In this document: piece by piece, positions 9,758-55,998 of the stretch
Position numbering within the stretch: position 1 is the stretch's first letter
Layout: every line of letters starts with the position of its first letter
Assembly (NCBI GenBank): GCA_045863315.1
Contig: BTUX01000002.1
Location: 1-55,998 of the forward strand
Origin: Candidatus Hydrogenedentota bacterium
GTDB taxonomy: Bacteria; Hydrogenedentota; Hydrogenedentia; Hydrogenedentales; SLHB01
Length of the DNA stretch: 55,998 nucleotides
Direction of reading: 5' to 3'
Notes under the pieces: generated by a model
Database searches by the model: none
Told to the model about the DNA's origin: nothing
The model's input: only the letters and a program-made list of their open reading frames with translations
Program-made: the position numbers and the translations under genes

Positions 9758-9948
9758 CCCGGATTCTTCCTTGCCGCGCGCCCGGTGGGATACAACTTCG
9801 TGCGGCACATACCTTTATGCAGCGACAGGGAAAACGGGCTGTTGGTGTGAAAAATCCTCAACCGATTGACTTGTATGCTATCTCCTGAGCATTTCTCACC
9901 AGTTGCTCCCCGTCAACGGGGGGGCGACTGGTGAGAAATGCGGGTTAG
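9754..9948 (+). mobile_element. MITE-like structured repeat, copy A (chimeric 5' end)
   Basis: TTAG...TTAG flanks. From GGATACAACTTCGTGCGGCAC onward it matches the main family, including the terminal hairpin (apex variant TTGCTCCCCG-TCAA-CGGGGGGGCGA). The 5' P2 strand is the variant GGATTCTTCCTTGCC. Confidence 0.75.
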
Positions 9949-9990
9949 CCTGCATTTCGACGGGAGCGACCGGTGAGAAATGCGGGTCAG
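9949..9990 (+). repeat. extra truncated hairpin arm of the same repeat family
   Basis: CCTGCATTTC-GACGGGAGCGACCGGTGAGAAATGCGGGTCAG repeats the 3' arm of the hairpin directly after copy A. Most of the 5' arm is missing. Confidence 0.5.
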
Positions 9991-11859: not shown

Positions 11860-11922
11860 CTAACCCGCATTTCTCGCCAGTCGCTCCCGTCATCGGGAGC
11901 GACTGGCGAGAAATGCGGCTAA
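11860..11922. repeat. solo hairpin module (copy B) of the MITE-like repeat family
   Basis: CTAACCCGCATTTCTCGCCAGTCGCTCCCG-TCAT-CGGGAGCGACTGGCGAGAAATGCGGCTAA forms a hairpin of about 27 bp. It is flanked by direct CTAA. The right CTA is the complement of the TAG stop of the ORF at 11919-12122. Confidence 0.75.
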
Positions 11923-12122
11923 TCCTCAAAACACGAGCGGCCCGCCTTGCATTCCTGTCGCTCGACGGCCTGTCCGTCCGGCCCGAAGGTTTCGTTGGTC
12001 CGGGCACACCAGTACATGCCGCTGGAGAACTCGTCGCCGCCACCCGCCGACGCCTCATAGTACATCTCCTTGGAGCGTATATGCTTACAAGGAAAGACGA
12101 ACCCAGTCTTCTCTTCCGACAT
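11919..12122 (-). CDS. small Cys-rich hypothetical protein (67 aa)
   Basis: Start placed at MSEEKTGFVFPCKH (ATG 12122, GGGAGGGG 8 nt upstream). Four Cys residues. Same strand as and immediately downstream of the molybdoenzyme operon. Confidence 0.5.
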   Translation of the reverse strand: MSEEKTGFVFPCKHIRSKEMYYEASAGGGDEFSSGMYWCARTNETFGPDGQAVERQECKAGRSCFED

Positions 12123-12210
12123 TCCTGCCCCTCCCGATGCAGATGGGCACCCTGCCATGTTCAAAAAGCGCGCCCCCGAAATCCGATTCCACCGGGGTGC
12201 CGTGCAGTCG

Positions 12211-27111: not shown

Positions 27112-27306
27112 CTAACCCGCATTTCTCACCAGTCGCTCCCGATGACGGGAGCGACTGGTGAGAAATGCTCAGGAGATAGCATAGAAGTCAATCGGGTGAG
27201 GATTTTTCACACCAACAGCCCGTTTTTTGCCCTGTCGCTGCATAATGGCATGTGCTGTACGAAGTTGTATCCTTCTTTGCCCGAGGGTGTGAAAAACCCG
27301 GGTTAG
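27112..27306 (-). mobile_element. MITE-like structured repeat, copy C (only full-length copy on the minus strand)
   Basis: The plus strand reads CTAACCCGCATTTCTCACCAGTCGCTCCCG-ATGA-CGGGAGCGACTGGTGAGAAATGC...GGATTTTTCACACC...GGTGTGAAAAACCCGGGTTAG. This is the reverse complement of the family consensus with about a dozen substitutions. Confidence 0.8.
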
Positions 27307-28527: not shown

Positions 28528-28726
28528 TTACCCCGGATTCTTCACGCCCACGCGCGTCCAAGGATACAACGTTGTTCAATGCATACCCTCATGTCTCGCC
28601 GGCGCGCGGCCCGGCAAAACTGGTTGTGGGCGTGAAGAATCCTCATCCAACGCGCTCCCATGCGTTATCCAGAACATGTCTCGCCACACCCCCCTCCACG
28701 GGGGAGTGGCGAGTAACGCGGGGTAT
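28528..28726 (+). mobile_element. diverged subfamily copy (D) of the MITE-like repeat
   Basis: TTACCCCGGATTCTTCACGCCCAC...AAGGATACAACGTTG...GTGGGCGTGAAGAATCC...TCTCGCCACACCCCC-CTCCAC-GGGGGAGTGGCGAG...CGGGGTA has the same order of helices with different sequence. Confidence 0.6.
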
Positions 28727-28900
28727 AACCCAGCGCCCACCCCCCACACTGGCGTAGGCGTAACCCACGACAGGCCCACCGACCTCGGCCGCCGGCCACA
28801 GCAGTGAGACTGAGCGGACCACCTTGATCCGCTCGGCCATCGGTGACGGAGGAAAGGCCTCTTACTTGAAGGCCACCGCCGTTTGCGTCACGTAGTGGTT

Positions 28901-29092
28901 GTAGCCCGGATTTTTCATACCCGCGGGCAATGAAGGATTCAACTTCGTGAGGCACATACCTTTATGCAGCGACAGGGAAATCGGGCTGTTGGTGTGAAAA
29001 ATCCTCACCCGATTGACTTCTCTGCCATCACCTGAGCATTTCTCACCAGTCGCTCCCGTCATCGGGAGCGACTGGTGAGAAATGCGGGGTAG
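28901..29092 (+). mobile_element. MITE-like structured repeat, copy E
   Basis: GTAG...GTAG flanks. About 11 differences from copy G by eye. P1, P2 (one G-T wobble) and P3 are all intact. Confidence 0.85.
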
Positions 29093-31273: not shown

Positions 31274-31489
31274 CGCAGATTCCTTCAGCCGTGTAAGACC
31301 CGATTTCAGAGTGTGTGATACCGAAAGGGTTGGAGAGCTGTGAATAGGGTCGCAATCAGGCGCAAAATTTACCGAAACGCCGGGAGATTTTCAAGTTTTG
31401 CGGGGTCATCGACCCGCACATCGCCTGATTCTCCGCAGCCCGGTTGTCCGTGGCCATGCGCGCCGCTGCGCGCGCGTGAATACGTCGGG

Positions 31490-32659
31490 CTAAGGGGAGG
31501 AAATCCCGCCGGCATGGAGAGCGATCGCTTCGTCGTACGTTTCGCACACGCGTTCCACCATGCGCCCCAGCGTGAAGTGTTCCCGAATCCACGCACGGCC
31601 CGCCGCGCCCATCTTTTTCCTGCCCGGTCCATCCAGGACGAGCGACTCGATCGCTCGGGCCAAGGCGTCGACATCTCCAGGCGGGACGAGCACGCCGGTG
31701 CGCCCGTTGTCGAGGGCCTCGCCCGTGCCGCCAATGTCGGACGCCACGACCGGCAAGCCGGCCGCCTGAGCCTCGAGTACAGAGGTGGGCAGGCCCTCCT
31801 GTTGCACGGACGGTTGTGCGAAGATGTCGAATGACGCCAGTGCGCTCGCGAGATCGTCCCAGAACCCGGTGAATGTCGCTCGATCATGAATGCCGAGCTT
31901 GGCCGCCTTGGCCTCGAGCGCGCGTTTCGCCGGGCCGTCTCCGACGATGACCGCGCGCAGATGGGGATATGCCGGCGCGAGCTTGAATAGGGCATCGAGC
32001 AAATGCGTGTGGCCCTTTTCGATCGATACGCGGCTGCACGTGCCCACGACCAGCGCGTCCTCGGGTATATCGAACTTCGCGCGAAGCTCCATCCGATTGC
32101 GGTTGTGATCCGCCGCCTCGAGGTCGAGGCCCGTATAGATTACGCGAATCCGGTCTTCGCGGGTGGGGCCTTTCAGAATGCGCTCCTTCATGTGGTTCGA
32201 TACCGTGATGACGAGATCGCAGTGGGGCAGGGCGAAATCCCGTTCAATCCATTGATAGACGAACCGCCGGAAGGGAAGGAACCCGTCCCACCAGCCGTAC
32301 GCGCTCGCGACGACCGCGCAGGGCCACTTGCGGCGGCCGATCCCGATCATCGTGTTCGAGTGCGGGTCATGGGTGTGGACGATATCGACATCGTACTTCT
32401 TGATCAGCTCAAGCACCTTCGCGCGAGCGAGGCCCCAGTTGGAGCGCGATTTCCACGGGATGCGCTCGTTCGAAGGCGGGAGCCCGCGTCTGCGCGCTTG
32501 CTCGATAAACAGTTCATCGCTTCCCGAAAAGGTGTCGTAGGGAACGAGGATGACGCGGTAGCGCTCTTTCGGCAGGTGCTTCATGAGGGTGAGCAGGATG
32601 GTATGCGAGCCGCCGAACGCCCAACTGCGAATCAGGAAAAGTACGTTGCGCGGTTTCAC
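31490..32659 (-). CDS. glycosyltransferase family 4
   Basis: GTG 32659 (VKPRNVLFLIRSWAFGGSHT) overlaps the upstream stop as GTGA. C-terminal QPSVQQEGLPTSVLEAQAAGLPVVASDIGGTGEALDNGRTGVLV. The 687-aa ORF-track version is an artefactual extension through the upstream gene. Confidence 0.85.
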   Translation of the reverse strand: MKPRNVLFLIRSWAFGGSHTILLTLMKHLPKERYRVILVPYDTFSGSDELFIEQARRRGLPPSNERIPWKSRSNWGLARAKVLELIKKYDVDIVHTHDPHSNTMIGIGRRKWPCAVVASAYGWWDGFLPFRRFVYQWIERDFALPHCDLVITVSNHMKERILKGPTREDRIRVIYTGLDLEAADHNRNRMELRAKFDIPEDALVVGTCSRVSIEKGHTHLLDALFKLAPAYPHLRAVIVGDGPAKRALEAKAAKLGIHDRATFTGFWDDLASALASFDIFAQPSVQQEGLPTSVLEAQAAGLPVVASDIGGTGEALDNGRTGVLVPPGDVDALARAIESLVLDGPGRKKMGAAGRAWIREHFTLGRMVERVCETYDEAIALHAGGISSP

Positions 32660-36768: not shown

Positions 36769-36960
36769 CTAGCCCGGATTTTTCACACCCGCGGGCAATG
36801 AAGGATACAACTTCGTGCGGCACATACCTTTATGCAGCGACAGGAAAAACGGGCTGTTGGTGTGAAAAATCCTCACCCGATTGACTTCTATGCTATCTCC
36901 TGAGCATTTCTCACCAATCGCTCCCGTCATCGGGAGCGACTGGTGAGAAATGCGGGCTAG
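36769..36960 (+). mobile_element. MITE-like structured repeat, copy F
   Basis: CTAG...CTAG flanks. Differs from copy G at 4 of 192 positions. The right-hand CTA (36957-36959) is the complement of the phosphoesterase TAG stop. Confidence 0.85.
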
Positions 36961-38350: not shown

Positions 38351-38542
38351 CTAGCCCGGATTTTTCACACCCGCGGGCAATGAAGGATACCACTTCGTGC
38401 GGCACATCCCTTTATGCAGCGACAGGGAAAACGGGCTGTTGGTGTGAAAAATCCTCACCCGATTGACTTCTATGCTATCTCCTGAGCATTTCTCACCAGT
38501 CGCTCCCGTCATCGGGAGCGACTGGTGAGAAATGCGGGCTAG
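38351..38542 (+). mobile_element. MITE-like structured repeat, copy G (used as reference)
   Basis: CTAGCCC / GGATTTTTCACACC / 69-nt loop / GGTGTGAAAAATCC / 31-nt linker / GCATTTCTCACCAGTCGCTCCCG-TCAT-CGGGAGCGACTGGTGAGAAATGC / GGGCTAG. Confidence 0.85.
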
Positions 38543-38834
38543 CCGGAACTCAACCAGATACTCCAAAAAAAGGCGGTCCGAATCCTGTTGAACGTCATCC
38601 ACGTGCTGGGCGAGCGCCTTGAGGCCGCCAATCTCCATATCGTCGAACACAAACTGGTCAGGGTCGAGTAGGCATCGGACAGTCATCTCGGGGTTTCGCC
38701 GAGGACGAGTGGGACTTCGTTCCCTGGCGGCGCGACCCGCGTCAGGGGAAGCGGAGTTTCGTTTCGACCCCGTCAAACGCTTATAATTCGGTCTTCCACG
38801 GCGAATCTTTTCAACTTGTCTCCAGGGGCATTTC

Positions 38835-40787
38835 ATGCGGTCTTGTGGAAGGTGGATCCGCACGCGACGGGCTGCGGCAGTTGTAATACTGTGCGGACGG
38901 GCTTGGGCGGATGCGCCGATCCTGCCCGCAGGAGTTTCCGAACGCCTCGCGCACCGGCAGGCCGACCTCGTGGTGGATCTGGGCGTGGGCCTGTGGGCCT
39001 ATCCGCTTCCCATGGACTTCGACGGCGACGGCGACCACGACCTGGTCGTCGCAACGCCGAACAAGCCGTCCAACGGCGTCTTTTTTTTCGAGAACAAGGA
39101 AGGCGACGTCAAGTTCCCCGTGTTCGAACGTTCTGTTCGCGTGAGCGACGCCGTCTTCGACCTCACCGTATCGTTTCCCCGAGGGGAGGCCGTGGTGCTC
39201 AGTCCCGAAACAAGGTATCCGCGGTTTTCGGAAACGGGCACAGCGGAAGGGCGACCCCTTGGAACCGAGGGGCCGCAGCTTGACGGCAAACTGCGCGGAC
39301 GGCAGTGGATGATGACCGACTACAATGGCGACGGCCGCGATGACCTTGTTGTAGGGATCGGGGTATGGACCGAATACGGATGGGACGACGCCTACAACGA
39401 GAAAGGCGAGTGGACGAACGGCCCGCTCCGGGGCTTTGTGTACGTATGCTTGAACGAGGGAGACGACGCGAGCCCCCGATATGCGGCGCCGGAGCAGGTC
39501 ATGACCGAAGACGGACCTGTCGACGTGTATGGCGCGCCGTCGCCCAACTTCGCGGATTTCGACGGCGACGGCGATCTTGATCTCGTATGCGGCGAATTTC
39601 TCGATCGGTTGACCTACTTCGAAAACATCGGTTCGCGAACGGGGCCGCGCTATGCCAAGGGCCGATGCCTCCAACACCAGGGCGAGGACATTCGCATGGA
39701 CCTTGAAATGCTCCAGGTCATCGCCATGGACTGGGACAAAGACGGCGACGTCGATCTTATCGTCGGGCAGGAAGACGGCCGCGTGGCCCTTGTCGAACAT
39801 GCGGGAGGCGTGGCGGACGGAATGCCGGTCTTTCTGTCTCCGCGTTTTTTTGAGCAGCGCGCCGACTTGCTCAAAGTCGGAGCGCTCAATACTCCGTCTG
39901 CATGCGATTGGGACGGCGACGGCGACGAGGACTTCATCGTCGGAGACACCGCAGGCTACATCAGCTTCGTCGAGAACTTGGACGGAGGCGATCCACCGGC
40001 GTGGGCAAAACCGGTCTATCTCGAGGCGGACGGGAAACGCATACGCATCCAAGCCGGGCCGAATGGTTCAATCCAGGGACCAGCGGAAGCGAAGTGGGGA
40101 TACACGGTGCCGTGTGTTGCTGACTGGAACCATGACGGTCTGCTTGATATCGTGATCAATTCCATCTGGGGCGAAGTGCTTTGGTACGAAAACGTCGGGT
40201 CCAGGACCGTCCCACGGCTCGCCGCCGCTCAGCCGCTCGAAGTGGAATGGGATGGATCGGCGCCGAAGCCGGAATGGAACTGGTGGGACCCCAAAGGCAA
40301 GCAATTGGTGACGCAATGGCGCACGAGCCCCGTCGTGCTGGACCTCGATCGCGACGGCCTGAACGATCTCGTGATGCTCGACCACGAAGGTTTTCTCGCG
40401 TTTTTTCAACGGCAACAAGGCGGCGCCGCTCTTCTGCTGCTTCCCGGAAAGCGCATATTCAAAGACGATGCCGGCAACTTGCTTCACCTTAATCCACACC
40501 GGGCGGGCAAGAGCGGTCGGCGAAAACTGACATTCGCGGATTGGGACGGGGACGGCAAACTCGATATCCTGATCAATGGGGACAGCATCGACCTGATGTT
40601 GAATGTCAGCTCGTCGCCGGACGAGTTCAATTTCCGCATGATGGGGTCCCTCGACGCGCGCAAGGTCGGCGGCCACACCACCTGCCCCACCACTGTCGAT
40701 TGGGATCGCGACGGCATCCCTGACCTGGTGTACGGTGCGGAGGACGGATACTTCTACTACCTGAAGAATCTCCGGTCCGCGAGGTAA
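38835..40787 (+). CDS. FG-GAP/VCBS repeat beta-propeller protein, exported
   Basis: 650 aa. Nine or more D-x-D/N-x-DG-x-x-D repeats (DFDGDGDHDLVV, DYNGDGRDDLVVG, DFDGDGDLDLVCG, DWDKDGDVDLIVG, DWDGDGDEDFIVG, DLDRDGLNDLVM, DWDGDGKLDILI, DWDRDGIPDLVY). Confidence 0.85.
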   Translation: MRSCGRWIRTRRAAAVVILCGRAWADAPILPAGVSERLAHRQADLVVDLGVGLWAYPLPMDFDGDGDHDLVVATPNKPSNGVFFFENKEGDVKFPVFERSVRVSDAVFDLTVSFPRGEAVVLSPETRYPRFSETGTAEGRPLGTEGPQLDGKLRGRQWMMTDYNGDGRDDLVVGIGVWTEYGWDDAYNEKGEWTNGPLRGFVYVCLNEGDDASPRYAAPEQVMTEDGPVDVYGAPSPNFADFDGDGDLDLVCGEFLDRLTYFENIGSRTGPRYAKGRCLQHQGEDIRMDLEMLQVIAMDWDKDGDVDLIVGQEDGRVALVEHAGGVADGMPVFLSPRFFEQRADLLKVGALNTPSACDWDGDGDEDFIVGDTAGYISFVENLDGGDPPAWAKPVYLEADGKRIRIQAGPNGSIQGPAEAKWGYTVPCVADWNHDGLLDIVINSIWGEVLWYENVGSRTVPRLAAAQPLEVEWDGSAPKPEWNWWDPKGKQLVTQWRTSPVVLDLDRDGLNDLVMLDHEGFLAFFQRQQGGAALLLLPGKRIFKDDAGNLLHLNPHRAGKSGRRKLTFADWDGDGKLDILINGDSIDLMLNVSSSPDEFNFRMMGSLDARKVGGHTTCPTTVDWDRDGIPDLVYGAEDGYFYYLKNLRSAR

Positions 40788-40809: not shown

Positions 40810-43140
40810 TTGGCAAAGAAAAAGAGAAGAGCGGCGACTTCCCCTTCCATTCCGGCTCCCGTATGGTCGCCCACTTCGCGCCAGGTGGCGCTGGGGTTGC
40901 TCGTACTCGTTCTCGTTGTTTTCGGCGACGTCTTCATCACCGCCAAGGACCTTGTGGCATCCAGCGTCGAGTTCGATGCGAAGATCTACTTCGCGCCTGT
41001 CCGCGAGTTCGCGTATGCCGAAATACTCAGTGGAAACCTTCCGCTGTGGAACCCTTATATTTTCTCCGGCGCGCCGTTTCTCGCAGGCATGCAATCGGCC
41101 CTGCTTTATCCGCTGAACCTGCACTACCTGATATTGCCCCTTGCGAAGTCCTTGAATGTCGAAATAACCCTGCACGTTTTCCTGCTGGGTTTGTTCATGT
41201 TTGCTTGGGCGCGAGACCGCGGCCTATCGACTACCGCTTCGGCGTTTTCCGCTACGGCCCTGATGTTCTCCGGCCCTTACTTCCTTCACGTGATGGCGGG
41301 CCACCTCACGCTCCTGGCCGCACTGGCCTGGACGCCGCTCGCGTTTCTCGCCGTAGACCGTCTGCTCGATACGGAGAGACCGAAGTGGATGTACGTGGGT
41401 GCGCTTGCGTTGACGATGTCCATTCTCGCCGGACACCCGCAAGGCGTGTTCTACACCATGGCGGTCCTAATCCCCTACGCGGTGCTTCGCTCGCTTCGCC
41501 GTTCCGGCAGCGGCAGGGTGATGGTCCCATTGGCCGGCTTGTTCGTCGCACCGCTGTTCCTGGCTGCGGCGCAGCTTTGGCCCGCCCTTGCGTTTTCGGG
41601 CGAGAGCGTCCGCGCCGGCGGCATCTCCTACGCCGCGGCAACGAGTTATTCGTTCCCACCCGAGAACCTGCTCACGCTGATAGTGCCCGCTTTTTTCGGA
41701 GATCATGTCCACACCTCCTATTGGGGGCGATGGGCCTACTGGGAAATGTCCGTCTTTTTGAGTGTCAGCGCCCTCTCGCTTGCCATGTACGCGATATTTG
41801 CCGGCGATAGTCGAACGCGATGGATGTGGCTGGGGTTCGCTGTCGCCTCGTTCCTAGTCGGACTCGGACGGTATACGCCGCTTTCATACCTGCTTTACTA
41901 CTTTATGCCGGGATTTGCTTCCTTCCGCAGCCCGTCCAAGGTCATCTTTTTCACCGTACTGTTCTTGTGTTTGCTTGCCGGTCACGGTTTGGATTCGCTC
42001 GTGCGCCGTCCGGGTCGGGCCCGAATTTTTGCCGCCGGCTCGGCCGTCCTGGGAGGAGGTCTGTTTGCCACGGCAATGGTGATTTACGTCATAACGCGCG
42101 GTGATGGCGAGCTGTGGCGCGGTGTGCTTAACCGAATGTATGTGCCCGGCGACGTATGGTGGGAGTTCTCCGATACGCTCGTGCAGGAATCTGCGGCGAA
42201 CGCCGTCCGATCCCTGATGGTGTCGGCCTTGACCCTGGCGCTTCTGGGAGGCCTGTATTGGGCGCGCGGGAAGACCCCATGGGCGGCGTATGGCGTCGCC
42301 GCCGTAGGTCTTATTGAGTTATTGGTGTTTGCGCGGGCATCGCGTCCCGTTTTTGACCTCGCCTCGACCCGGGTGGAACGGTACGACGCGATGCTGCGCG
42401 AACGGAAGGGAGACGGACGGGTCTTGGATGTGGCGACCGGCAATTATCTCATGCCGATGCGCGTGCCGGGGATGTGGGGATATGACCCCGCGGGCCTGCG
42501 GCGGTACCGTGAATTGCTCGCGCACACACAGGGGCCCCAACCCCTCTACGCAATCAACGAGGTCCGGTTCAATTCGTTTCATCCCTTGTTCGCCATGTTT
42601 CGATGCTACCTCGCGATTCAGTCGTCCGAACCTGACGAACGCACCTTTCCGCAAGACAACCCGCTGCCGCGGTTTCTCGTGTTGAACCGGTACCGAATCA
42701 TCGACGACGCGCACGAACGAATCGCCGCCGTCTGCGATCCCTCGTTCGACCCGCGCCAGGAAGTCATTCTGGAATCTCAACCCGACCCCCTGCCGGACGC
42801 CTCCGGTGCGACCGGGAGTGTGACGGTATTGGCGGAAACAACGGACTGCGTCGAAATCGAGGCCGAAATGTCAGGCGCGGGCATCCTCTTGATGACGGAC
42901 ACGTACGCATCCGACTGGCGGGCCGTGCCGTTACACGCGGGACCGCAGGCGGGCTACGCCGTCATGCCCGCCAACCATGCCCTGCGCGCCATTCCCTTGA
43001 GTCCGGGCAAACACCGGATTCGACTCGAATACGACCCGCCGGCGTTTCGGTACGGTATGTGGGTATCGGTGGCGTCGTTTGTCGCATGGAGTGGAGGGTG
43101 GGCGTACCATGTTCAGCGCAGGGCCCGGCCCAAGCCATGA
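40810..43140 (+). CDS. YfhO-family polytopic membrane protein (GT-C-like)
   Basis: 776 aa and multi-TM. N-terminal FAPVREFAYAEILSGNLPLWNPYIFSGAPFLAGMQSALLYPLNLHYL is the conserved YfhO-type region as I recall it. Confidence 0.75.
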   Translation: MAKKKRRAATSPSIPAPVWSPTSRQVALGLLVLVLVVFGDVFITAKDLVASSVEFDAKIYFAPVREFAYAEILSGNLPLWNPYIFSGAPFLAGMQSALLYPLNLHYLILPLAKSLNVEITLHVFLLGLFMFAWARDRGLSTTASAFSATALMFSGPYFLHVMAGHLTLLAALAWTPLAFLAVDRLLDTERPKWMYVGALALTMSILAGHPQGVFYTMAVLIPYAVLRSLRRSGSGRVMVPLAGLFVAPLFLAAAQLWPALAFSGESVRAGGISYAAATSYSFPPENLLTLIVPAFFGDHVHTSYWGRWAYWEMSVFLSVSALSLAMYAIFAGDSRTRWMWLGFAVASFLVGLGRYTPLSYLLYYFMPGFASFRSPSKVIFFTVLFLCLLAGHGLDSLVRRPGRARIFAAGSAVLGGGLFATAMVIYVITRGDGELWRGVLNRMYVPGDVWWEFSDTLVQESAANAVRSLMVSALTLALLGGLYWARGKTPWAAYGVAAVGLIELLVFARASRPVFDLASTRVERYDAMLRERKGDGRVLDVATGNYLMPMRVPGMWGYDPAGLRRYRELLAHTQGPQPLYAINEVRFNSFHPLFAMFRCYLAIQSSEPDERTFPQDNPLPRFLVLNRYRIIDDAHERIAAVCDPSFDPRQEVILESQPDPLPDASGATGSVTVLAETTDCVEIEAEMSGAGILLMTDTYASDWRAVPLHAGPQAGYAVMPANHALRAIPLSPGKHRIRLEYDPPAFRYGMWVSVASFVAWSGGWAYHVQRRARPKP

Positions 43141-43183
43141 TTCGATTCGTCCATACGTGGCCGGACGGCGTCGCCCAAGCACG

Positions 43184-45568
43184 ATGGCAAGCCACGCCAA
43201 ACCAGACGTCGTGCGCACGGGGCGGGAGCGCAAGCCCATGGCAATGAGGTCGACGCTCCACAGCCGCATCGCGTGGGCGCAATCGTATTCACGCACAGTC
43301 GCGTGTCTAATACTAATGGCGCTCGTGCTTCTCATGTTTGGCGATGTTTTATTCACGGCGCGCGATATCGTCGCGTCCCATAATCAGTACGACGCCAAGT
43401 GCTATTTCGCCGCCGTGCGCAGCTTCGGTTTCGACGAGATTCGCAACGGCAACCTCCCGTTGTGGAACCCGTACATTTATTCGGGTGCGCCCTTTGTCGC
43501 GGGTTTTCAGTCGGCGCTGTTTTACCCGTTGAATTTGCACTATCTCGTCCTACCGCTCGCCAAATCGCTCAACCTGGAAATCGTGCTGCACGTGGGTCTC
43601 GTTGGCGTGTTGATGTTCATGTGGGCGTGCGACCGCGGTCTGTCGACCAAGGCCGCGCTTTTCGCCGCCATCGTCCCCACGTTCTCCGCCCCGTTCTTCC
43701 TCCATGTGATGCCGGGGCACCTCACTATGCTGGGCGCCATGTCGTGGACCCCGCTTGCGTTTATGGCCGTTGACCGAGTTCTAGAGACGCGCCGTGTCTA
43801 CTGGGCCTTCGTGGGGGCGACGGCGCTCACCATGACCATTCTCGCCGGTCATCCGCAGGTTGTATTCTGTTTGCTCGTTGCTCTCGGACCCTACGCGGCG
43901 ATTCGCTGGATGCAGAACCCGCATCGGGCAACCGCCGCGGCACGGCTGGCCTTCCTGTTCGGTGCGCCCGTCTTTCTCGCGGCCGCGCAACTTTGGCCCG
44001 GCATCGCGTCAACAGATGAGAGCATCCGGGCCGGCGGCATGGATTACGCTGTCGCATCGAGCCTGTCGTTTCCGCCCGAGAATCTACTGACATTCTTCGC
44101 GCCCACATTCTTTGGCGATTCCGAAGCGACGACGTATTGGGGCCGCTGGGTCTACTGGGAGTCCTGTGCGTTCATCGGCGTGACCGCATTGTCGCTGGCT
44201 ATGTATGGAGTGGTCGCGGGCCGGCAGCGCGCCCGATACCTGTGGCTGGGCATGGCGCTCGGCGTGATTGCCGTGTCCCTTGGCCGGTACACGCCGTTGC
44301 ACCGCGCGCTGTACGCGGCGGTCCCCGGTTTCGACGCGTTCCGATGTCCGACCAGGCATTTGTTTCTGGCCGTGCCGTTTCTGGCGTTGCTGGCGGGCCA
44401 CGGTATCGATACGCTTTCACAACGCCCCAGGCGTGTGCCCGTATTGGTTTTCACCACGTTTGCCTGCGCAATTGCGATGTTCGTGGCGGCAGGTCTTGTC
44501 GTGTGGGCCGGTGGACAAGGAGATGCGGCGAGCGCATGGGCGCGCCTGTTGGCCTGGATGCACACGCCCGGCGAAAGCCGCTGGAAGTACAGCGACGCAT
44601 GGGTCGCGGCTTCGGCAAACCACGCTGTACGTTCCTTGATTGCAGCGGCGACCACAAGCACTTTGCTTGCCGTCCTGTATCTCGCCGCGCGTCGCCGGAC
44701 TTGGCCCGTCTACGCCATGATCGCCTTGGGAACGCTGGAGCTCATGGTATTCGCGCGAATCTCCCGGCCTTCATTTGATCTCGCGTCCCTCCGGCGGCCC
44801 GAACTCGAATCGTTTTTGCATTCGCAGGGCGGCGATTTCCGCGTGTTCGATCAGACGATCGAGAACTATCCCCTTGAGATCCGCGTTCACGACATGTGGG
44901 GATACGATCCCGCCGCCCGCCGCCGGTACACGCAACTCGTCGCGTATACTCAAGATGCTCGGGCGGAAACCGACTTGAACGAGTTCGGGTTCAAGCAATT
45001 TCATCCGCTGTACGCGATGTTTCGCTGCGAATACGTGATCATGTCGCGGTACAATCCCGACAACGTGGCCCGGCTTGCGAACGTGCTGCCACGGGCCCTG
45101 CTGATAGGCCGGTTCCGTGTGATCGAAGACGAGGACGAGCGCATCCGCGCCGTCGCGGATCATTCGTTTGACCCGAGGGACATTGTCATACTGGAATCCC
45201 AGCCCGATCCGGCGCCCGAGCCCGACGGAGCGGGGGGAGTCATACGATGTATAGACGAATCGACCGACCGCTTCATCGTCGAGGTCGAGGCAACGCGCCC
45301 CTCGATTCTGCTTATCACGGACTCCTACTCGAAGGACTGGCGGGCGACCCCGCTGTCGCAGGGACCTCAATCGCAGTACGAGATTCTACCCGCAAACCAT
45401 GCGCTGCGCGCGATACCGCTCGCCGCGGGGTCTCATCGGATCCGGTTCGAGTATGCGCCCCCCTCGTTCGCGTGGGGCATCCGGACGTCGATCGTCTCGT
45501 TGACCGTGTTCAACGCGGCCTGGATCGGTTGCCTTGTGTTCACGCCGCGACTACGGAAGCCGTCATAG
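43184..45568 (+). CDS. YfhO-family polytopic membrane protein, tandem paralogue
   Basis: Colinear with the preceding gene (FAAVRSFGFDEIRNGNLPLWNPYIYSGAPFVAGFQSALFYPLNLHYL). The start is uncertain: 43184 (MASHAK) or 43238 (MAMRS). The ORF-track start at 43079 overlaps the upstream gene. Confidence 0.75.
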   Translation: MASHAKPDVVRTGRERKPMAMRSTLHSRIAWAQSYSRTVACLILMALVLLMFGDVLFTARDIVASHNQYDAKCYFAAVRSFGFDEIRNGNLPLWNPYIYSGAPFVAGFQSALFYPLNLHYLVLPLAKSLNLEIVLHVGLVGVLMFMWACDRGLSTKAALFAAIVPTFSAPFFLHVMPGHLTMLGAMSWTPLAFMAVDRVLETRRVYWAFVGATALTMTILAGHPQVVFCLLVALGPYAAIRWMQNPHRATAAARLAFLFGAPVFLAAAQLWPGIASTDESIRAGGMDYAVASSLSFPPENLLTFFAPTFFGDSEATTYWGRWVYWESCAFIGVTALSLAMYGVVAGRQRARYLWLGMALGVIAVSLGRYTPLHRALYAAVPGFDAFRCPTRHLFLAVPFLALLAGHGIDTLSQRPRRVPVLVFTTFACAIAMFVAAGLVVWAGGQGDAASAWARLLAWMHTPGESRWKYSDAWVAASANHAVRSLIAAATTSTLLAVLYLAARRRTWPVYAMIALGTLELMVFARISRPSFDLASLRRPELESFLHSQGGDFRVFDQTIENYPLEIRVHDMWGYDPAARRRYTQLVAYTQDARAETDLNEFGFKQFHPLYAMFRCEYVIMSRYNPDNVARLANVLPRALLIGRFRVIEDEDERIRAVADHSFDPRDIVILESQPDPAPEPDGAGGVIRCIDESTDRFIVEVEATRPSILLITDSYSKDWRATPLSQGPQSQYEILPANHALRAIPLAAGSHRIRFEYAPPSFAWGIRTSIVSLTVFNAAWIGCLVFTPRLRKPS

Positions 45569-45700: not shown

Positions 45701-45892
45701 CTGCCCCGGATTTTTCACACCCGCGGGCAATGAAGGATACCACTTCGTGCGGCACATACCCTTATGCAGCGACAGGGAAAACGGGCTGTTGGTGTGAAAA
45801 ATCCTCACCCGATTGACTTCCATGCTATCTCCTGAGCATATCTCACCAGTCGCTCCCGTCATCGGGAGCGACTGGTGAGAAATGCGGGCTAC
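45701..45892 (+). mobile_element. MITE-like structured repeat, copy H
   Basis: CTGC...CTAC flanks. About 7 differences from copy G. The right-hand CTA (45889-45891) is the complement of the pgeF TAG stop. Confidence 0.85.
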
Positions 45893-48641: not shown

Positions 48642-48838
48642 TGCATCCTCATTGTCATCCGCTCCGCATCGCTGCTCATTGTAGGAGGTCGGGGGGACGC
48701 ATCACAAGGGGACCTTGCGCGACATGGATAGCGCCTTGGCCGCATTCCTCACGCGCCGCTCCGCGTCTTGAGAGTAGATAAGCGCATGTGTTGTACGACG
48801 GTGTATCCCCCAATGCGCATGTGGGCGAGGTATGGGGG

Positions 48839-49462
48839 TCAAGGATGGAGCGACAAGCCGAGGGTTTCCGCAACCCTGCGGAGCATTTCGCGGTTTATCG
48901 CGCCTTCCCGGAGGATTTCGCCCGAATCGGGATCGAACACGGTCGAGGGGAGGCTTGGCTCCAGTTTTCCACCGTCGATGCAGGCCTCTACCCCGCACAA
49001 TTTGATCTCGTCGGACATGCGAGCGGGTGCCTCGCCCGATCGGTTGGCCGAGGTCGACGTGATCGGCACGCCGCAAAGGCGGCACAAGGTCCGGGCCGTC
49101 TCGCACGCGGGAATACGCACGCAAACCTTGGGCAGCCCCGCGCACAGTTCGTCCGGAAGCGCCGGGGTCTTTGGCAGGGCCAGGCTGAGAGGTCCCGGCC
49201 AAAACGCGCGCATGAACGCCGCCGCCGCCGCCGAAACGTTCGGCGCAACGCGCCTCACTTGCTTCTCATCGGCCGCTACAAGGAGGACAGGCTGGTTCTC
49301 CGCTCGCCCCTTGATCTCGAACAGAGCGCCAATCGCGTCGCGCGAGAACGGGTCCACGCCCAGACCGTATACCGTCTCGGTTGGATATGCCACGACGCAT
49401 CCCGAACGGATCAGGCGGGCGGCCTCCTCGAGTCCGGCATGGGTCGCGGGGAGAAGGCGCAT
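48839..49462 (-). CDS. tsaC: L-threonylcarbamoyladenylate synthase (YrdC/TsaC domain)
   Basis: Start at MRLLPATHAGLEEAARLIRSGCVVAYPTETVYGLGVDPF (ATG 49462, 2 nt after the rdgB stop). PITSTSANRSGEAP. The 380-aa ORF-track form is an upstream extension. Confidence 0.85.
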   Translation of the reverse strand: MRLLPATHAGLEEAARLIRSGCVVAYPTETVYGLGVDPFSRDAIGALFEIKGRAENQPVLLVAADEKQVRRVAPNVSAAAAAFMRAFWPGPLSLALPKTPALPDELCAGLPKVCVRIPACETARTLCRLCGVPITSTSANRSGEAPARMSDEIKLCGVEACIDGGKLEPSLPSTVFDPDSGEILREGAINREMLRRVAETLGLSLHP

Positions 49463-50101: not shown

Positions 50102-50812
50102 TCACCGGTCGGCGAGCGACGCCCGTTGCAGCGCAAACAGTTCGCGAATGCCTTTTTCGCCGAGTTCGAACAGGCGATCCATCGTGCCGCGATCAAACGA
50201 CGCGCGCTCGGCCGACCCCTGCACCTCGATGAAAGTCCCGTCGTCCCGCATGACGAGGTTCATGTCCACCTCCGCGGCCGAATCTTCGGCATAGCACAGA
50301 TCGAGTCTGGGCTCGCCGTCCACGACGCCGACGCTGACGGCGGCGCACTGGCCGGTCAAGGGAGACGCGTTGAGTGCGCCGCGCCGAAGAAGCGAATCGA
50401 TGGCGTCGTGCAGCGCCACGTAGGCGCCGGTGATGGAAGCGGTCCGGGTGCCGCCGTCCGCCTGGATGACGTCGCAGTCCAGAATGATTTGCCGCTCGCC
50501 GAGGGCGGCCAAGTCGACTACGCATCGAAGGGAGCGGCCGATGAGCCGGCTGATTTCGAGGGCCCTGCCCTTTTTGACGGAATCGCGCTGAATGCGCTCT
50601 TGAGAGCATCTCGGCAGCATGCCGTACTCGGCCGTCACCCAACCCGACCCGGTGTCTTTCAAGAACGGGGGCACTCGCGGCTCCACCGTGGCCGTGCACA
50701 ACACCTTCGTGTCGCCGAACACGACGTAGGCGGCGCCTTCCGCGAACTTGGTGTAGTTACGCTCGATTGAGACGGGCCGCAGTGCGTCGGGCGCCCGATG
50801 GTCGGGCCGCAT
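50102..50812 (-). CDS. rph: ribonuclease PH
   Basis: Start at [41 protein letters not shown] (ATG 50812). [23 protein letters not shown]. Confidence 0.95.
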
Positions 50813-50931
50813 GCCGTCTACCCCGCCTTTTTCACACGCTTGGTTGTGGGAGGATGCAACACCGAACGTCCTCTCTGCCCGTATTGCCGCGCGACTCTTG
50901 TTCAATGCAGGTTGAGCGTGCGAAATGCGGT

Positions 50932-52386
50932 TTACAGCGCCCTTCCCGACTGGGGCGCCGCGACTTCCTGGTCGGGCTTGGGTTCCGTGGGCGCCACGTC
51001 CGGGGGTGCGTCCGCGGCCGCAACCTGGGTGATCTTGACGTCCTTGTGGTAGCGGTTGATGAGGGTGTCCCATACCGACTCTTCTTTCAGGATGTCGACG
51101 GCCCGTTTGAGCTGCACGTCCTCGACCATCCCTTCCTCAAGTTTGTTGCCGGTGACGGTGCCGTGATTCTGTTCATGCTGCTTGGACGGATCGCTCTCGA
51201 ACGAATCCCGCATCTGCCGGAAGAATGCGGGCCACTGTTCCATCGGGAACGGGACCTCGACGTCCGGCAGGATTCCATGCTTGTTGATGGTAACGTCCGC
51301 CGGTGTGTAATACAGGGCGGTGGTGAGCCGCAGCGCGCTTTGGGGCGGGCTCTTGAGCGGGATGATCGTTTGCACGCTGCCCTTGCCGAACGTCTTCATG
51401 CCGACGATCAGCGCGCGCTTGTGGAATTGGAGGGCGCCCGTCACGATCTCCGACGAACTTGCCGTATGCTCGTTGACGAGCACCACCATCGGAAAGTCGA
51501 GCGGAAGGACGGGCTTGCCCTTGGTATACAGGGTCATGTCCTCCGATACGCTGCCGTCGGGATGCTTGCGTCCTCGGGTGTAGGTGACGAGCGTCTTGTC
51601 CTTGAGGAACAATTGCGCTACCTCTTGCGAGGCGCTCAAGAGGCCGCCGGGGTTCCAGCGCAGGTCGAGCACGAGCGATTTCATGCCCTTATCCTGCAGG
51701 TCTTTCAAGTGCCGCGCGATTTCCTGCGCGGTCGTCTGTTTGAAATCGCTGACGCGGATGTAGCCGATCGAGCCGTCGATCACGCGGCTCTCGATGACGC
51801 TCTCCATCGGAATGCGGCCGCGCGTGACGGGGATGTCAAGGAATTCCGGCCGCTTGTCGGAGTCTTCAAACGCCCGAAACACCGTCAGCGTTACCACCGT
51901 GCCCGACTCGCCGCGAATCCGCTCCTTTGCCGCGTCGATGCTCATGCCTTGAGTTGTTTCGCCGTCGATTTTCACGATAATGTCGCCCGCCATCAAACCT
52001 GCTTTCGCGGCGGGCGATCCAAGAATCGGCTGAAAGATGACGATGTTCTTGTCGTCGTCCAATTTGATCTGCACGCCGATGCCCGAGAATTCACCTTCCG
52101 TTTCCTCGCGAAGCTCCTTGTACACGCGCGCCGAAACGAAGGAACTGTGGTCGTCAAGCGAGTTCATCATGCCGGTGAGGGCGCCCTCGACCAATTTGTC
52201 GGTGTCGGGCTCCTCCACGTAGTTGCGGAGCACTTCGTGCAGCACGACCCCGATCGGCTCGATCTTCAGGATGAGGTCTTCATCTTCCTGCGCGGAAATC
52301 CGTGCGACGAAACCGTTGGACAGGACCAGGACCACAGCGGCGAGAAACAGGAACAGGCCCATGAATTGCGAACGCACATTACGCAT
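50932..52386 (-). CDS. ctpA: carboxy-terminal processing (S41) peptidase with PDZ domain
   Basis: Start at [22 protein letters not shown] (ATG 52386 after GGAGG). [10 protein letters not shown]...GDIIVKIDG is the PDZ region. [13 protein letters not shown]...[14 protein letters not shown]...GKGSVQ is the S41 catalytic region. Confidence 0.9.
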
Positions 52387-52594: not shown

Positions 52595-54178
52595 CTACTG
52601 GGCGGCCATCGTCTTTCCCTGCTCCGTCGCCAGTTTTCTCAGCTCGGTTTTCAGAATTTTGCCGGTCGGGCCGAGCGGCAGGCTCTTTACGAACTCGATG
52701 TGGCGCGGATACTTGTACGCGGCCATCTCTTTTTTCGCCCACGCAATGAGTTCTTGCTCGGTAATCCGTGCTCCCGTCTGGGGTATCACGTAGGCCATCA
52801 CTTCTTCCCCGTATTCCTCGTGCGGCACGCCCACCACCGCGGCCAGAGAGACGTCGGGATGCATCATGAGCACTTCCTCGACCTCGCGGGGATACACATT
52901 GAACCCGCCTCGGATGATCATGTCTTTGACCCGGTCCACAATGTAGTAATAGCCGTCTTCGTCCTTGTAGCCGATGTCGCCGCTATGGAACCAGCCGCCG
53001 CGGAAGGCCTCGTCGTTCGCTTCGTCGCGCTTGTAGTACCCCTTCATGATGTTGTGCCCGCGAATGACGATCTCGCCGGGTTGGCCCACGGGAAGCTCGT
53101 TCATGTGTTCGTCGACCACTTTCATCTCGACGCCCCACACCGGCGTGCCGATGGAGCCCGGTTTGCGCTGCTTTTCGAGCTGATTGAAACTGGCCACCGG
53201 CGACGTCTCCGATAGACCGTACCCCTCGAGAATGGGGACATTGAACTTTTCCTCGAAACGCTTCATCACTTCGACCGGCATTGCCGCGCCGCCGGAGTTG
53301 CAGATGCGAAGGGTCTTCGCGATCTTCTCGACGTTGAATTTGTCGAGTTCGGGATAGTTGAGCAGGTCCCAGTACATGGTGGGGACTCCGGAAAACATGG
53401 TGATGCCGTCGTCCTGGAAGGAGCGCAGGACGGCCCCCGGTTCGAACCGCGCGTGCAGGACCAGCGTGGCCCCCGCCAGGATGCCCGCCATCATCTGGCA
53501 GGTGAATCCGAACGAATGGAACAACGGAAGGACCACCAAGAGAATGTCGTCTTTTGTCGCCCGTCCCAGGTCACGCACCACCATGGTATTGATGGTGATG
53601 TTCGAATGGGTCAACTCCGCGCCTTTGGGCCGGCCGGTGGTGCCCGAGGTGTAAATGATCAAACAGGTGTCGTCCGGCCTGCACTGGACCGTCTCGAACG
53701 TATAGGCCTGGTTATGCATCAGGTCCGAAAGGGTCGGGACGCCCTCGAGCGGCGAATCCGCGCCGGGAATGGTCGGAATCACCCACAGGTTCTTGCACGT
53801 GCCGGCCTCCTTGAATCCGGCATACCCCTCGTCCAGCACGCGCAGTTGTTCGGTCCCCTGGAAGCAGATGAAGCCCACCGAGTCGGAATCGGACAGGTGG
53901 TAGGCGAACTCGCGGTGTTTGAGCAGCGGGTTCAGCGGCACCACGACCGCGCCCGCCTTCAGAATCCCGAACACGACGATAGGAAAGTACGGCAGATTGG
54001 GACAACACAGCGCGACCTTGTCGCCCTTACGCACCCCCTTGGCGTACAGGCCGTTCGCGACCTGATTGGCCATCGCGTTGACCTGCGCGTAGCTGAGTTC
54101 GATGTGGTCGAACTTCACCGCCACCTTGTTCGGATACGCCTTTGCGCTTTCTTCCAGCAATGTCGCAAGGTTCATCAT
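52595..54178 (-). CDS. AMP-dependent synthetase/ligase (long-chain-fatty-acid--CoA ligase-like)
   Basis: 527 aa. IIYTSGTTGRPKGAELTH (A3/P-loop), GYGLSETSP, WFHSGDIGYKDEDGYYYIVDRVKDMIIRGGFNVYPREVEE. Confidence 0.9.
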   Translation of the reverse strand: MMNLATLLEESAKAYPNKVAVKFDHIELSYAQVNAMANQVANGLYAKGVRKGDKVALCCPNLPYFPIVVFGILKAGAVVVPLNPLLKHREFAYHLSDSDSVGFICFQGTEQLRVLDEGYAGFKEAGTCKNLWVIPTIPGADSPLEGVPTLSDLMHNQAYTFETVQCRPDDTCLIIYTSGTTGRPKGAELTHSNITINTMVVRDLGRATKDDILLVVLPLFHSFGFTCQMMAGILAGATLVLHARFEPGAVLRSFQDDGITMFSGVPTMYWDLLNYPELDKFNVEKIAKTLRICNSGGAAMPVEVMKRFEEKFNVPILEGYGLSETSPVASFNQLEKQRKPGSIGTPVWGVEMKVVDEHMNELPVGQPGEIVIRGHNIMKGYYKRDEANDEAFRGGWFHSGDIGYKDEDGYYYIVDRVKDMIIRGGFNVYPREVEEVLMMHPDVSLAAVVGVPHEEYGEEVMAYVIPQTGARITEQELIAWAKKEMAAYKYPRHIEFVKSLPLGPTGKILKTELRKLATEQGKTMAAQ

Positions 54179-54238
54179 GGTCCGTTCACTCCCATGGCGA
54201 TAGGCCCCGACAACCCCGGGGGCCGCCGATTTTCTTCC

Positions 54239-55813
54239 TCATTTCACGCCGGCGCCTTGGAGCGCCAACTTGCGCAACTCCGTCTTCAGGATTTTTCCGG
54301 TCGGCCCGATGGGCAGGCTGTTCACGATCTCGACCATCCGCGGATACTTGTACCCCGCAAGCTGCGTCTTACCCCACGCGATGATGTCCTCCGGCGTCAA
54401 GGTCGATCCGTCTTGGAGGATAACGTACGCCTTGACCTCCTCGCCGTATTCCTCGTGAGGGACCCCGACCGCCGCGGCGAGGGATATCTCGGGGTGCGAC
54501 ATCAGCACTTCCTCGATCTCGCGCGGGTACACGTTGAACCCGCCGCGAATGATCATGTCCTTGATCCGGTCCACGATGAAGAAGTATCCGTCCTCGTCCT
54601 TGTACCCCACATCGCCGCTGTGAAACCAGCCGCCGCGAAACGCCTCTTCGTTGGCTTCGTCGTGCTTGTAGTAGCCCTTCATGACGTTATGGCCCCGAAT
54701 GACGATCTCGCCGGGTTGGCCCACGGGCATCTCGTTCATGTTCTCGTCCACCACTTTCATTTCGACGCCCCAAATCGGAACGCCGATCGATCCGACCTTC
54801 TGCGGCATGTCGATCCGGGTGAAACTGGCGGACGGCGAAGTCTCGCTCAGCCCGTAGCCCTCGAGGATTTTGATGCCGAACTTCTCCTGAAACCGCGTCA
54901 TGACATCCACCGGCATCGCGGCGCCGCCCGACACGCCCAATCGCAAGCGGCCCCGGATCTTCTCGAGGTCGAACTTGTCGGCCTCGGGATAGTTCAACAA
55001 GTCCCAATACATCGTCGGAACGCCGGCAAAAAGCGAAACGCCCTCGGCCTCGAAGATGCGCCATACCTCGCCCGCCTCGAAGCGAGGCAGCAAGACGACC
55101 GTCGCCCCGCCCAAAGTGACGGAATTGAGCAATGCCGAAAGGCCGAACGAGTGGAACAGCGGGAGGACCGCCAAGGTCACGTCATCGGGTCTCCCATCGA
55201 TCAGATGGCGAGACACCAGGCAGTTCATCAACATATTCGAGTGCGTGAGCTCGGCGCCCTTGGGCCGGCCTGTCGTGCCGGACGTGTAAATGATCACGCA
55301 GGTGTCGTCCGGCCGACATTGGACCGTCTCGAACGTGGTCGGCTGATCGCGCATGAGATCGCCGAGGGTGGGAACGCCGGGGATCGGCGAATCGCCCCCG
55401 GGAATCGTCGGGATGATCCAGAACTTCTCGCAGGTCTTGGTCTGCTTGAATCCCTCGTAAGCCGTCTTGCCGATGGGCAGGTCTTCGCGTCCTTCGAATG
55501 CGATGCAGGCCACGGAGTCCGAATCGGACAGGTGGAACGCGACCTCCCGCTCGCGCAGCAGCACGTTGAGCGGCACGAATACGGCCCCGGTCTTCAGAAT
55601 TCCGAAGTAGACAATGGGGAAATAGGGCAGGTTCGGGCAGGACAAGGCGACCTTGTCTCCCTTCTGGATACCTGCCGCTGTTAATCCATTGGCGACCTGG
55701 TTCGCCATGTCATTGACGGTCCGGTAGTTCAACCGGAAGTGGTTGAACACGACGGCGTCGTGATCCGGTTTTTCGCGCGCGCTGTTCTCGAGAATGACCG
55801 CCAGGTTCATCAT
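54239..55813 (-). CDS. AMP-dependent synthetase/ligase, tandem paralogue
   Basis: Start at MMNLAVILENSAREKPD (ATG 55813 after GGGAGGG), colinear with the neighbour (MMNLATLLEESAKAYPN). The same adenylation motifs are present. Confidence 0.9.
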   Translation of the reverse strand: MMNLAVILENSAREKPDHDAVVFNHFRLNYRTVNDMANQVANGLTAAGIQKGDKVALSCPNLPYFPIVYFGILKTGAVFVPLNVLLREREVAFHLSDSDSVACIAFEGREDLPIGKTAYEGFKQTKTCEKFWIIPTIPGGDSPIPGVPTLGDLMRDQPTTFETVQCRPDDTCVIIYTSGTTGRPKGAELTHSNMLMNCLVSRHLIDGRPDDVTLAVLPLFHSFGLSALLNSVTLGGATVVLLPRFEAGEVWRIFEAEGVSLFAGVPTMYWDLLNYPEADKFDLEKIRGRLRLGVSGGAAMPVDVMTRFQEKFGIKILEGYGLSETSPSASFTRIDMPQKVGSIGVPIWGVEMKVVDENMNEMPVGQPGEIVIRGHNVMKGYYKHDEANEEAFRGGWFHSGDVGYKDEDGYFFIVDRIKDMIIRGGFNVYPREIEEVLMSHPEISLAAAVGVPHEEYGEEVKAYVILQDGSTLTPEDIIAWGKTQLAGYKYPRMVEIVNSLPIGPTGKILKTELRKLALQGAGVK

Positions 55814-55998
55814 GAGACAGGACCCTCCCACTTGATATGCTATGCCTCCACCATGACCCGCGGCCCGAGACCCGCCGCGATATCAACACAACGATCCAGC
55901 CAGACCGTTGATACACACAGCACCGATCATGCGAAGGGGGCGCGCCCGCGAAAAGGAACGCGAACCCGGACACCCGGGGTGTCGCCTCATTCCCCGCC

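Follow-up and report, generated by a model that had tools for sequence, protein, structure and literature searches.

The Correia elements of Neisseria and the REP/BIME and REPIN sequences of proteobacteria are small palindromic repeats that abound in extragenic DNA, frequently at the 3' ends of genes, and place stable stem-loops in transcripts. Correia elements duplicate TA; REP and REPIN sequences rely on RAYT and give rise to no duplication. The repeat family described here, carried by an uncultured member of the Hydrogenedentota, is likewise a small palindromic extragenic repeat but has no sequence similarity to any of these.

Among insertion sequences, IS5 of E. coli generates a 4-bp duplication of YTAR, and its insertions are biased to non-coding DNA (PMC5009759). 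IS711 of Brucella, which belongs to the IS427 group, is reported to duplicate the TA within YTAR and to prefer insertion into palindromic repeats (PMC2266754), and a fixed 4-bp duplication is also found in the IS701 family (PMC2266710). MITEPsy1 of Pseudomonas syringae is a 100-nt element with 18-nt inverted repeats that derives from ISPsy2 and generates a 4-nt CTAG/YTAA duplication (PMC3189936). The family shares with IS5 an apparent 4-bp target duplication, with YTAR among its targets, and mostly non-coding sites; however, IS5 is an autonomous 1.2-kb element that encodes a DDE transposase, while no transposase accompanies the family in the region analyzed and its termini are unrelated to those of IS5. 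The likeness to the IS5-family MITE represented by MITEPsy1/ISPsy2 extends to the short, non-coding, multicopy nature of the element, its inverted termini, the 4-nt duplication and, as we propose, mobilization in trans. Nevertheless, the MITEPsy1 ends, GGAAGGTCTGAAAAAGCC, are common to a known insertion sequence, whereas the ends of the family, CCCGSATTTYTCAC, have no known partner IS, and the family differs further from the 100-nt MITEPsy1 in its size of about 190 nt, its two hairpin modules, its additional use of GTAR and its host. With IS711 it has the YTAR target in common but, where IS711 is reported to duplicate TA only, the family appears to duplicate all four bases. A literature search found no earlier account of a mobile repeat family in Hydrogenedentota, and the present one is the first description that we have found.

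The window, that is, the whole 55,998-nucleotide stretch of DNA that was analyzed, was searched for copies by repeat finding, BLAST self-comparison and a profile HMM (nhmmer). Eight full copies (I, A, C, D, E, F, G and H), the hairpin-only copy B and several fragments were located, which amounts to at least ten dispersed copies plus fragments in 56 kb, or about one copy per 5 kb. The length between flanks is about 184-196 bp in the full copies and about 55 bp in the hairpin-only derivative. Fragment A', the unit that follows copy A, and the degraded copies J and K are additions to the original prediction, in which the other copies had been recognized. The features are as follows, with flanks given left/right in element orientation.

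1511-1711, plus strand: copy I, of a diverged subfamily, flanks CTAA/CTAG, at the stop codon of a GT4 glycosyltransferase gene
9667-9753, minus strand: fragment A', a left end from another subfamily in head-to-head arrangement with A
9754-9948, plus strand: copy A, flanks TTAG/TTAG, the middle one of a three-element cluster, upstream of a sigma-factor gene
9949-9990, plus strand: internally deleted hairpin-2 unit directly after the right TTAG of A, with its own right flank TCAG
11860-11922, plus strand: copy B, hairpin-only mini element, flanks CTAA/CTAA, at the stop codon of an 81-aa ORF
27112-27306, minus strand: copy C, flanks CTAA/TTAG, between HxlR and 23S-IVP-like genes
28528-28726, plus strand: copy D, of a diverged subfamily, flanks TTAC/GTAT, starting 21 nt past the TGA stop of a protoglobin gene
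28901-29092, plus strand: intergenic copy E, whose flanks GTAG/GTAG form a perfect direct repeat that is not a palindrome
31470-31493, no strand assigned: possible element-end relic that reads CCCGACGTATTCACGC on the gene strand, immediately past the TAG stop of a second GT4 gene
36769-36960, plus strand: copy F, the reference copy, about 192 nt, flanks CTAG/CTAG, at the stop codon of a metallophosphoesterase gene
38351-38542, plus strand: copy G, flanks CTAG/CTAG, in a divergent intergenic region between the start of the same phosphoesterase gene and the start of an FG-GAP gene, with no stop codon there
45701-45892, plus strand: copy H, flanks CTGC/CTAC, at the stop codon of a pgeF-like gene
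48736-48842, minus strand: copy K, short and degraded, degenerate flanks TTGA/CCAA
50818-50935, plus strand: copy J, short and degraded, flanks CTAC/TTAC

The young group, with 91-98% identity among its members, is composed of F, G, H, E and C, and A is 87-90% identical to it. Copies I and D are each only about 65% identical to the remaining copies (about 66% to F), and A'/K and J represent further diverged types, so that at least three subfamilies are present in the window. This divergence indicates that the family is old and has several subfamilies. Nine of the 12 copies and fragments have the same orientation.

A full copy consists, in this order, of a tetranucleotide, CCCGGATTTTTCACACC, hairpin 1, a spacer of about 30 nt, hairpin 2, GGG and a second tetranucleotide. 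In copy F the layout is CTAG, CCCGGATTTTTCAC..., hairpin 1, hairpin 2, ...GAAATGCGGG, CTAG, and the reconstructed pre-insertion site would read ...CAGTTCTCGCTGAACTAGCGCGTCAATCGCC.... Hairpin 1 has a 14-bp stem (GGATTTTTCACACC/GGTGTGAAAAATCC) and a loop of about 70 nt, and hairpin 2 has a 23-bp stem (GCATTTCTCACCAGTCGCTCCCG-TCAT-CGGGAGCGACTGGTGAGAAATGC); copy B is the right hairpin alone, with a perfect stem of 25 bp. The stems at the two ends resemble each other. The element begins with CCCGG and ends with GCGGG, and the termini, CCCGGATTTTTCACAC and CCCGCATTTCTCACCA, are inverted-identical at 13 of 16 positions in the main subfamily and more weakly so in I and D. The CCCGG termini fit none of the IS5-type ends with which they were compared. 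An internal motif, GGATAC(A/C)AC..TCGT, is conserved throughout the subfamilies.

The fold of the element is far more stable than that of shuffled sequence (z = -8.3, on either strand), and both hairpins have survived the divergence of subfamilies I and D through compensatory substitutions, with 11 pairs changed on both sides. Column shuffles gave 3.2 such pairs, with none of 500 shuffles reaching the observed value, and register-shift controls gave one to six. Conservation of this kind was unexpected. A transposase needs only the terminal arm. That the internal arms are conserved as well suggests that the hairpin may matter in itself, at the DNA or the RNA level, or else that the mobile module may ancestrally have been a hairpin-only unit of the type of B, with both arms serving as functional ends. 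Rfam includes no family for the element at the gathering threshold, and the matches obtained at a permissive E-value were exclusively miRNA-like hairpins that were judged spurious. The one open frame of the element, of 62 codons, has no protein homologue, and none of the ORFs that overlap the element has a Pfam match.

The family is thus short and non-coding, it has many dispersed copies and terminal inverted repeats, and it is flanked by a target-site duplication that is recognized statistically. We consider it probable, as the best explanation of the whole, that it is a MITE that duplicates a 4-bp TA-centered target and often lands on stop codons, which it rebuilds. It is a new MITE family, and the kind of element is already known.

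The flanks carry the main evidence for the duplication. All nine flank pairs that had been listed in the original prediction were read exactly so, including the perfect direct repeats at A, B and E and the inverted appearance of C alone, and J adds a tenth pair. The dinucleotide TA is present in 19 of the 20 flanks. The true left and right flanks were compared with 20,000 random re-pairings among the copies, a small sample of ten. Direct matching at the variable positions 1 and 4 was observed in 14 of 20 cases (permutation p = 0.002), with both positions matching in six copies (p = 0.001). Taken separately, position 1, at which the left outer base equals the right inner base, matches in 7 of the 10 copies (p = 0.04), and position 4, at which the left inner base equals the right outer base, matches in the same number (p = 0.01). 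The excess persists when the palindromic and hence uninformative copies F and G are dropped (p = 0.012), whereas inverted, reverse-complement matching stays at chance level (8 of 20, p = 0.5-0.6). The direct-repeat excess on which the original prediction depended was therefore borne out within the window. Since both bases flanking TA co-vary as direct repeats, the data favor a duplicated block that comprises all four bases, NTAN, in the order of preference CTAG, YTAR and GTAR. They argue against a tetranucleotide that belongs to the inverted repeat, since the pairs TTAG/TTAG, CTAA/CTAA and GTAG/GTAG would each need parallel mutation on two sides.

The 4-bp model requires later mutation in five of the ten copies, at one base each in I, H and J and at two each in C and D; the flanks of C are perfectly inverted and are not accounted for by duplication, and those of D are mismatched at two of four positions. 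These two copies fit better with another reading of the flanks, according to which TA alone would be duplicated at YTAR/CTAG, as by IS630/Tc1-mariner elements or the IS427-group element IS711, and the inner base on each side would belong to the inverted repeat. Such a duplication has its precedent in IS711, which is reported to duplicate TA within YTAR (PMC2266754), and it agrees with the complementary inner bases of F, G, C and D (G/C, G/C, A/T and C/G, respectively) and with a reconstructed CTAG target in 4 of the 10 copies (I, C, F and G). However, complementary inner bases in only four of ten copies are what chance provides, and a TA-only duplication does not predict the direct matches at positions 1 and 4. 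We regard it as unlikely.

With regard to the target, the consensus CTAG, and then YTAR, is found in 6 of the 10 copies, and the other four have GTAR/YTAC-type flanks (GTAG in E, CTAC in H, TTAC in J and GTAT in D). The original prediction of a 3-4-bp duplication at (Y)TAR is hence upheld as far as a 4-bp direct co-variation is concerned, but the target is looser than YTAR. The cluster at 9667-9990 consists of three elements side by side with shared junction TTAGs, the TTAG at 9754-9757 being common to A' and A. This arrangement fits a target-specific duplicating element, of which each duplication would offer a fresh target.

The strong hairpins at both ends, alike in their stems and kept by compensatory changes, are also reminiscent of REP/REPIN-like sequences or of IS200/IS605-derived PATEs, which a Y1 HUH transposase would mobilize in single-stranded form; the flanking four bases would then be a cleavage or target motif, and no duplication would take place. 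The REP motif GTAG is seen as GTAG/CTAC at E, H and J, the predominance of one orientation noted above would agree with such an origin, and the elements are extragenic and often lie just past stop codons, like REPs. Nevertheless, REP and IS200/IS605-derived families have neither terminal inverted repeats nor target duplication (PMC3119063), while the termini of the family are inverted repeats and its flanks co-vary directly. In addition, a REP doublet predicts inverted GTAG...CTAC, but inverted matching is at chance here, and a Pfam search identified no Y1 transposase in the window. An origin of this kind is in our opinion very unlikely, and the flanks continue to favor a MITE with a 4-bp duplication.

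Several element ends coincide with stop codons of neighboring genes, and the codons concerned are the following.

1708-1710: TAG stop of the minus-strand GT4 gene; its complement is the right CTA of I
11919-11921: TAG stop of the minus-strand 81-aa ORF, which has four cysteines; its complement is the right CTA of B
31490-31492: TAG stop of the second GT4 gene (minus strand), adjoining the possible relic
36957-36959: TAG stop of the metallophosphoesterase gene (minus strand); its complement is the right CTA of F
45889-45891: TAG stop of the Cu-oxidase_4/pgeF-like gene (minus strand); its complement is the right CTA of H
48839-48841: TGA stop of a Sua5/YrdC gene, directly preceding the left end of K
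50932-50934: TAA stop of an S41 peptidase gene; its complement is the right TTA, in the right flank of J

The overlaps at I, B, F and H had been predicted at precisely these coordinates. The stop at 31490-31492 had been put forward as a fifth case adjoining a relic; the TAG stop is real, but the relic is a resemblance of 16 nt (E = 2.7) that is not significant, and a search for relics in 20 intergenic regions found none that was. The window has 19 TAG/TAA stops, and element termini adjoin five of them (six including the relic) plus one TGA stop; 13 of its stops are TAG, and the family accounts for five or six of these.

In an alignment with more than 40 orthologues the phosphoesterase (...IDQFSLN*) ends where they do, and the Pfam match of the pgeF-like protein reaches position 237 of a 238-position model and is two residues short of the stop. 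As these C-termini are conserved, comparison of the protein sequences supports the view that the native stop codon was the insertion target and was regenerated, the coding sequence remaining intact, as had been anticipated. The original prediction also placed a hairpin of 23-27 bp immediately 3' of the coding region. A hairpin is indeed located there, although it is of 22-25 bp and starts 3-4 nt past the stop in I, B, F and H.

The frequency of insertions at stop codons depends on the sites to which it is compared. Five of ten insertions are on TAR stops, whereas the non-coding TA sites lead one to expect about 10% (p = 0.0016); when only YTAR is considered, three of six are at stops versus 21% (5 of 24 pre-insertion non-coding sites), a difference that is not significant (p = 0.11). 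The enrichment at stop codons that was expected from the original prediction is consequently seen against the first of these backgrounds but not against the second. YTAR is about tenfold depleted in the window, which has a G+C content of 61%, with 52 occurrences versus 522 expected from base composition. Thirty of the 52 are non-coding, and element flanks constitute 12 of those 30, from which it follows that about a quarter of the usable non-coding YTAR targets are occupied. The scarcity of YTAR probably explains most of the stop-codon enrichment: about half of the copies are on stop codons because targets are very rare outside TAG and TAA stops in a GC-rich genome. The simplest reading is target specificity together with the loss of disruptive insertions, with no dedicated stop-codon-seeking mechanism.

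The same positions could be explained if the repeat were a 3'-end RNA module selected by the host, a terminator or an mRNA-stabilizing stem-loop, whose location at stop codons would reflect selection for function. The distance of the hairpin from the stop in I, B, F and H is in agreement with this, it is hairpin 2 that points toward the gene in I, F, H and J, with K the only oriented stop-adjacent copy that is reversed, and the fold stability on both strands, the covariation and the internal motif common to all subfamilies could be those of a functional RNA. On the other hand, the orientation bias is not significant, the association with stops is within expectation for a YTAR target, copy G lies between divergent gene starts and copy A upstream of a sigma-factor gene, and the direct-repeat flanks are left unexplained. 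A terminator scan called none of the element copies, and no T run follows hairpin 2 on either strand; since there is no T tract after the hairpin, an intrinsic (Rho-independent) terminator was rejected. Selection as an RNA module is highly improbable as the whole explanation, and it could do no more than supplement the MITE explanation.

A possible mechanism for the MITE can be outlined from the above. The enzyme would be a transposase, most likely a DDE one, with its gene at another place in the genome; it would recognize the imperfect terminal inverted repeats and act in trans, making 4-nt staggered cuts at a TA-centered NTAN target with preference for CTAG, then YTAR and then GTAR. Repair of the gaps would duplicate the tetranucleotide. 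A good part of the sites where insertion does no harm would be TAG and TAA stop codons and, because YTAR is under-represented otherwise, many of the surviving insertions would be located exactly on stops. The protein would be unchanged because one copy of the duplication stays as the stop, and the terminal 22-25-bp hairpin would come to lie 3-4 nt downstream, where it may affect the 3' end of the mRNA.

Compensatory changes in the internal hairpin arms are not required by a simple model in which the transposase binds the element ends, and in this respect they run against the main view of the family as a MITE. A combined reading, which we regard as rather unlikely, is that the mover belongs to a transposase lineage that is new to NTAN/CTAG targets and that the hairpins are selected as structures. 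The selected hairpins could then be single-stranded or cruciform transposition intermediates, or 3'-end stem-loops at stops that were co-opted by the host, and the depletion of YTAR could in part be the result of long-term avoidance of the target of the element.

The proposal of a MITE was followed in related DNA. Empty sites, which the original prediction expected to show a single (Y)TAR, were sought in strains and relatives, and none was found. Logan contigs of the same species were identified via the flanking proteins in five to six samples and belong to strains 99-100% identical; all of them carry the same insertions, with no empty site or presence-absence polymorphism among them, and one flanking-protein query gave no match. 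A Logan contig that reaches 8.3 kb beyond the window includes no further copy. The nearest other relatives have 68-70% protein identity, the best phosphoesterase homologues being at most 70% identical, and their orthologous loci (L008-L011) show no element and no synteny, the stops being TAA and TGA.

About 50 ORFs of the window were scanned with Pfam; they are ordinary cellular genes, with no transposase among them. No autonomous partner or full-length element was found in genome, metagenome and viral-contig scans or by plasmid BLAST, the viral-contig scan and plasmid BLAST yielding no related sequence at all, and a protein search with the 62-codon open frame for other copies gave no candidate. 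A genome-contig scan with a hairpin 20-mer gave two chance-like matches of 20-21 nt, in Butyrivibrio and Kangiellaceae. A metagenome-contig scan with a 22-mer gave three matches (L005, L006 and L007), none of them with a full element; L007 was discarded as a chance match within a coding region. L005 and L006 have in common a 36-nt stretch that ends at the element terminus. In L006 an rfaE-like kinase gene ends with a TAG stop, and CCCGCATTTCTCACCAGTCGCTC, the terminal 23 nt of the element, comes directly after it with no second arm; judging from this sequence L006 is possibly a related half-site.

The original prediction pointed to the IS5 group as the source of the mobilizing enzyme. This assignment is a guess from the duplication. 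The termini were compared with the ends of MITEPsy1 (PMC3189936), against the background of the ISfinder families; those ends exemplify the GGAAGG/GA type of the IS5 group, a type not matched by the CCCGG.../...GCGGG ends of the family. These ends, the looser target and the alternative of an IS701-type enzyme make membership in the IS5 group uncertain.

The family illustrates how an element with a specific target can become dense in a genome at small cost, stop codons being a source of the motif that it uses; this principle is already known for TA- and YTAR-targeting elements. The host phylum is little studied. The copies also have practical effects on sequence data from the host: they create spurious ORFs, and short-read assemblies break at them, many Logan contigs ending inside copies.

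When the stretches of the reference copy F that form the two hairpins of the element (36776-36872 and 36904-36953) were compared with the matching parts of the diverged copies I (1511-1711) and D (28528-28726), compensatory substitutions were found to preserve both hairpins, with 11 double-sided pair changes as opposed to 3.2 in shuffled sequences. The arms kept in this way include internal ones that should be dispensable to a transposase. An internal motif, GGATAC(A/C)AC..TCGT(A/G)C, lies in the loop of hairpin 1 and is conserved across all subfamilies; even K, A' and J, which are degraded, carry it. Examples of the motif are:

36802-36820, internal motif
1545-1563, internal motif
28561-28578, internal motif
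48785-48805, minus strand, internal motif

This sequence conservation suggests a constrained site beyond the element termini, acting either in protein binding or at the RNA level.

The minus strand of the element is open throughout its length in a frame of 62 codons, the stop of which is the TAG of the left flank. This frame is found in the following copies:

36769-36960, minus strand, open frame through the whole element
38351-38542, minus strand, open frame through the whole element
45701-45892, minus strand, open frame through the whole element
28901-29092, minus strand, open frame through the whole element

A database of 5.8 billion sequences contained no protein sharing words with this frame, which gives rise to spurious ORFs such as that at 38351-38863.

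The tetranucleotide YTAR that flanks the elements is scarce in the window, with 52 occurrences against the 522 expected from base composition, a depletion of about tenfold; the dinucleotide TA occurs 1137 times against 2089 expected. Avoidance of the target sequence of the element might contribute to the scarcity of YTAR. Element flanks account for 12 of the 30 non-coding YTAR sites. Among the 43 gene stops of the window TGA is used 24 times, TAG 13 times and TAA 6 times. Of these TAG codons, five or six adjoin elements, and the stops of the two orthologues checked are TAA and TGA. Apparent TAG usage may thus be inflated by the elements.

Sequence differences among strains 99-100% identical concentrate within or beside the elements. 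The left end of copy A (window 9739-9790) differs at 7 positions in the strain contig L014 (20-70), and as a consequence the left ends of A and of the fragmentary copy A' are identical in L014 over 24 nt, in inverted orientation across TTAG. Copy D has fewer hairpin mismatches in the strain contigs L012 and L013 than in the window (28654-28794 compared with L012). These clustered differences could be the product of gene conversion, or could have arisen as artefacts of assembly where contigs end.

A stretch of 36 nt, closing with the terminal 22-26 nt of the element, is common to two contigs of other metagenomes, L006 (2137-2165) and L005 (185-221). In L006 an rfaE-like sugar kinase gene terminates in TAG immediately before this stretch (TTAG followed by CCCGCATTTCTCACCAGTCGCTC), and the second hairpin arm is absent. 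A 39-nt inverted repeat built of CGGNAT hexamers lies beside the stretch (L006 2212-2308).

Some 620 nt (50197-50817) separate the Ham1 gene from copy J; they include neither a Pfam-supported gene nor a significant element relic. An 81-codon ORF (11919-12164, minus strand), a putative gene flanked by a CO-dehydrogenase-flavoprotein-like and a DUF1326 gene, has no Pfam match; its product would include four cysteines, with the core CKHIRSKEMYY...GMYWC...C...C. The window also harbors two tandem paralogue pairs (at 52595-55831 and 40810-45568), the first consisting of AMP-binding (acyl-CoA synthetase-like) genes with a DNA identity of 72-82% and a period of 1635 nt and the second of genes for large YfhO-like membrane proteins.
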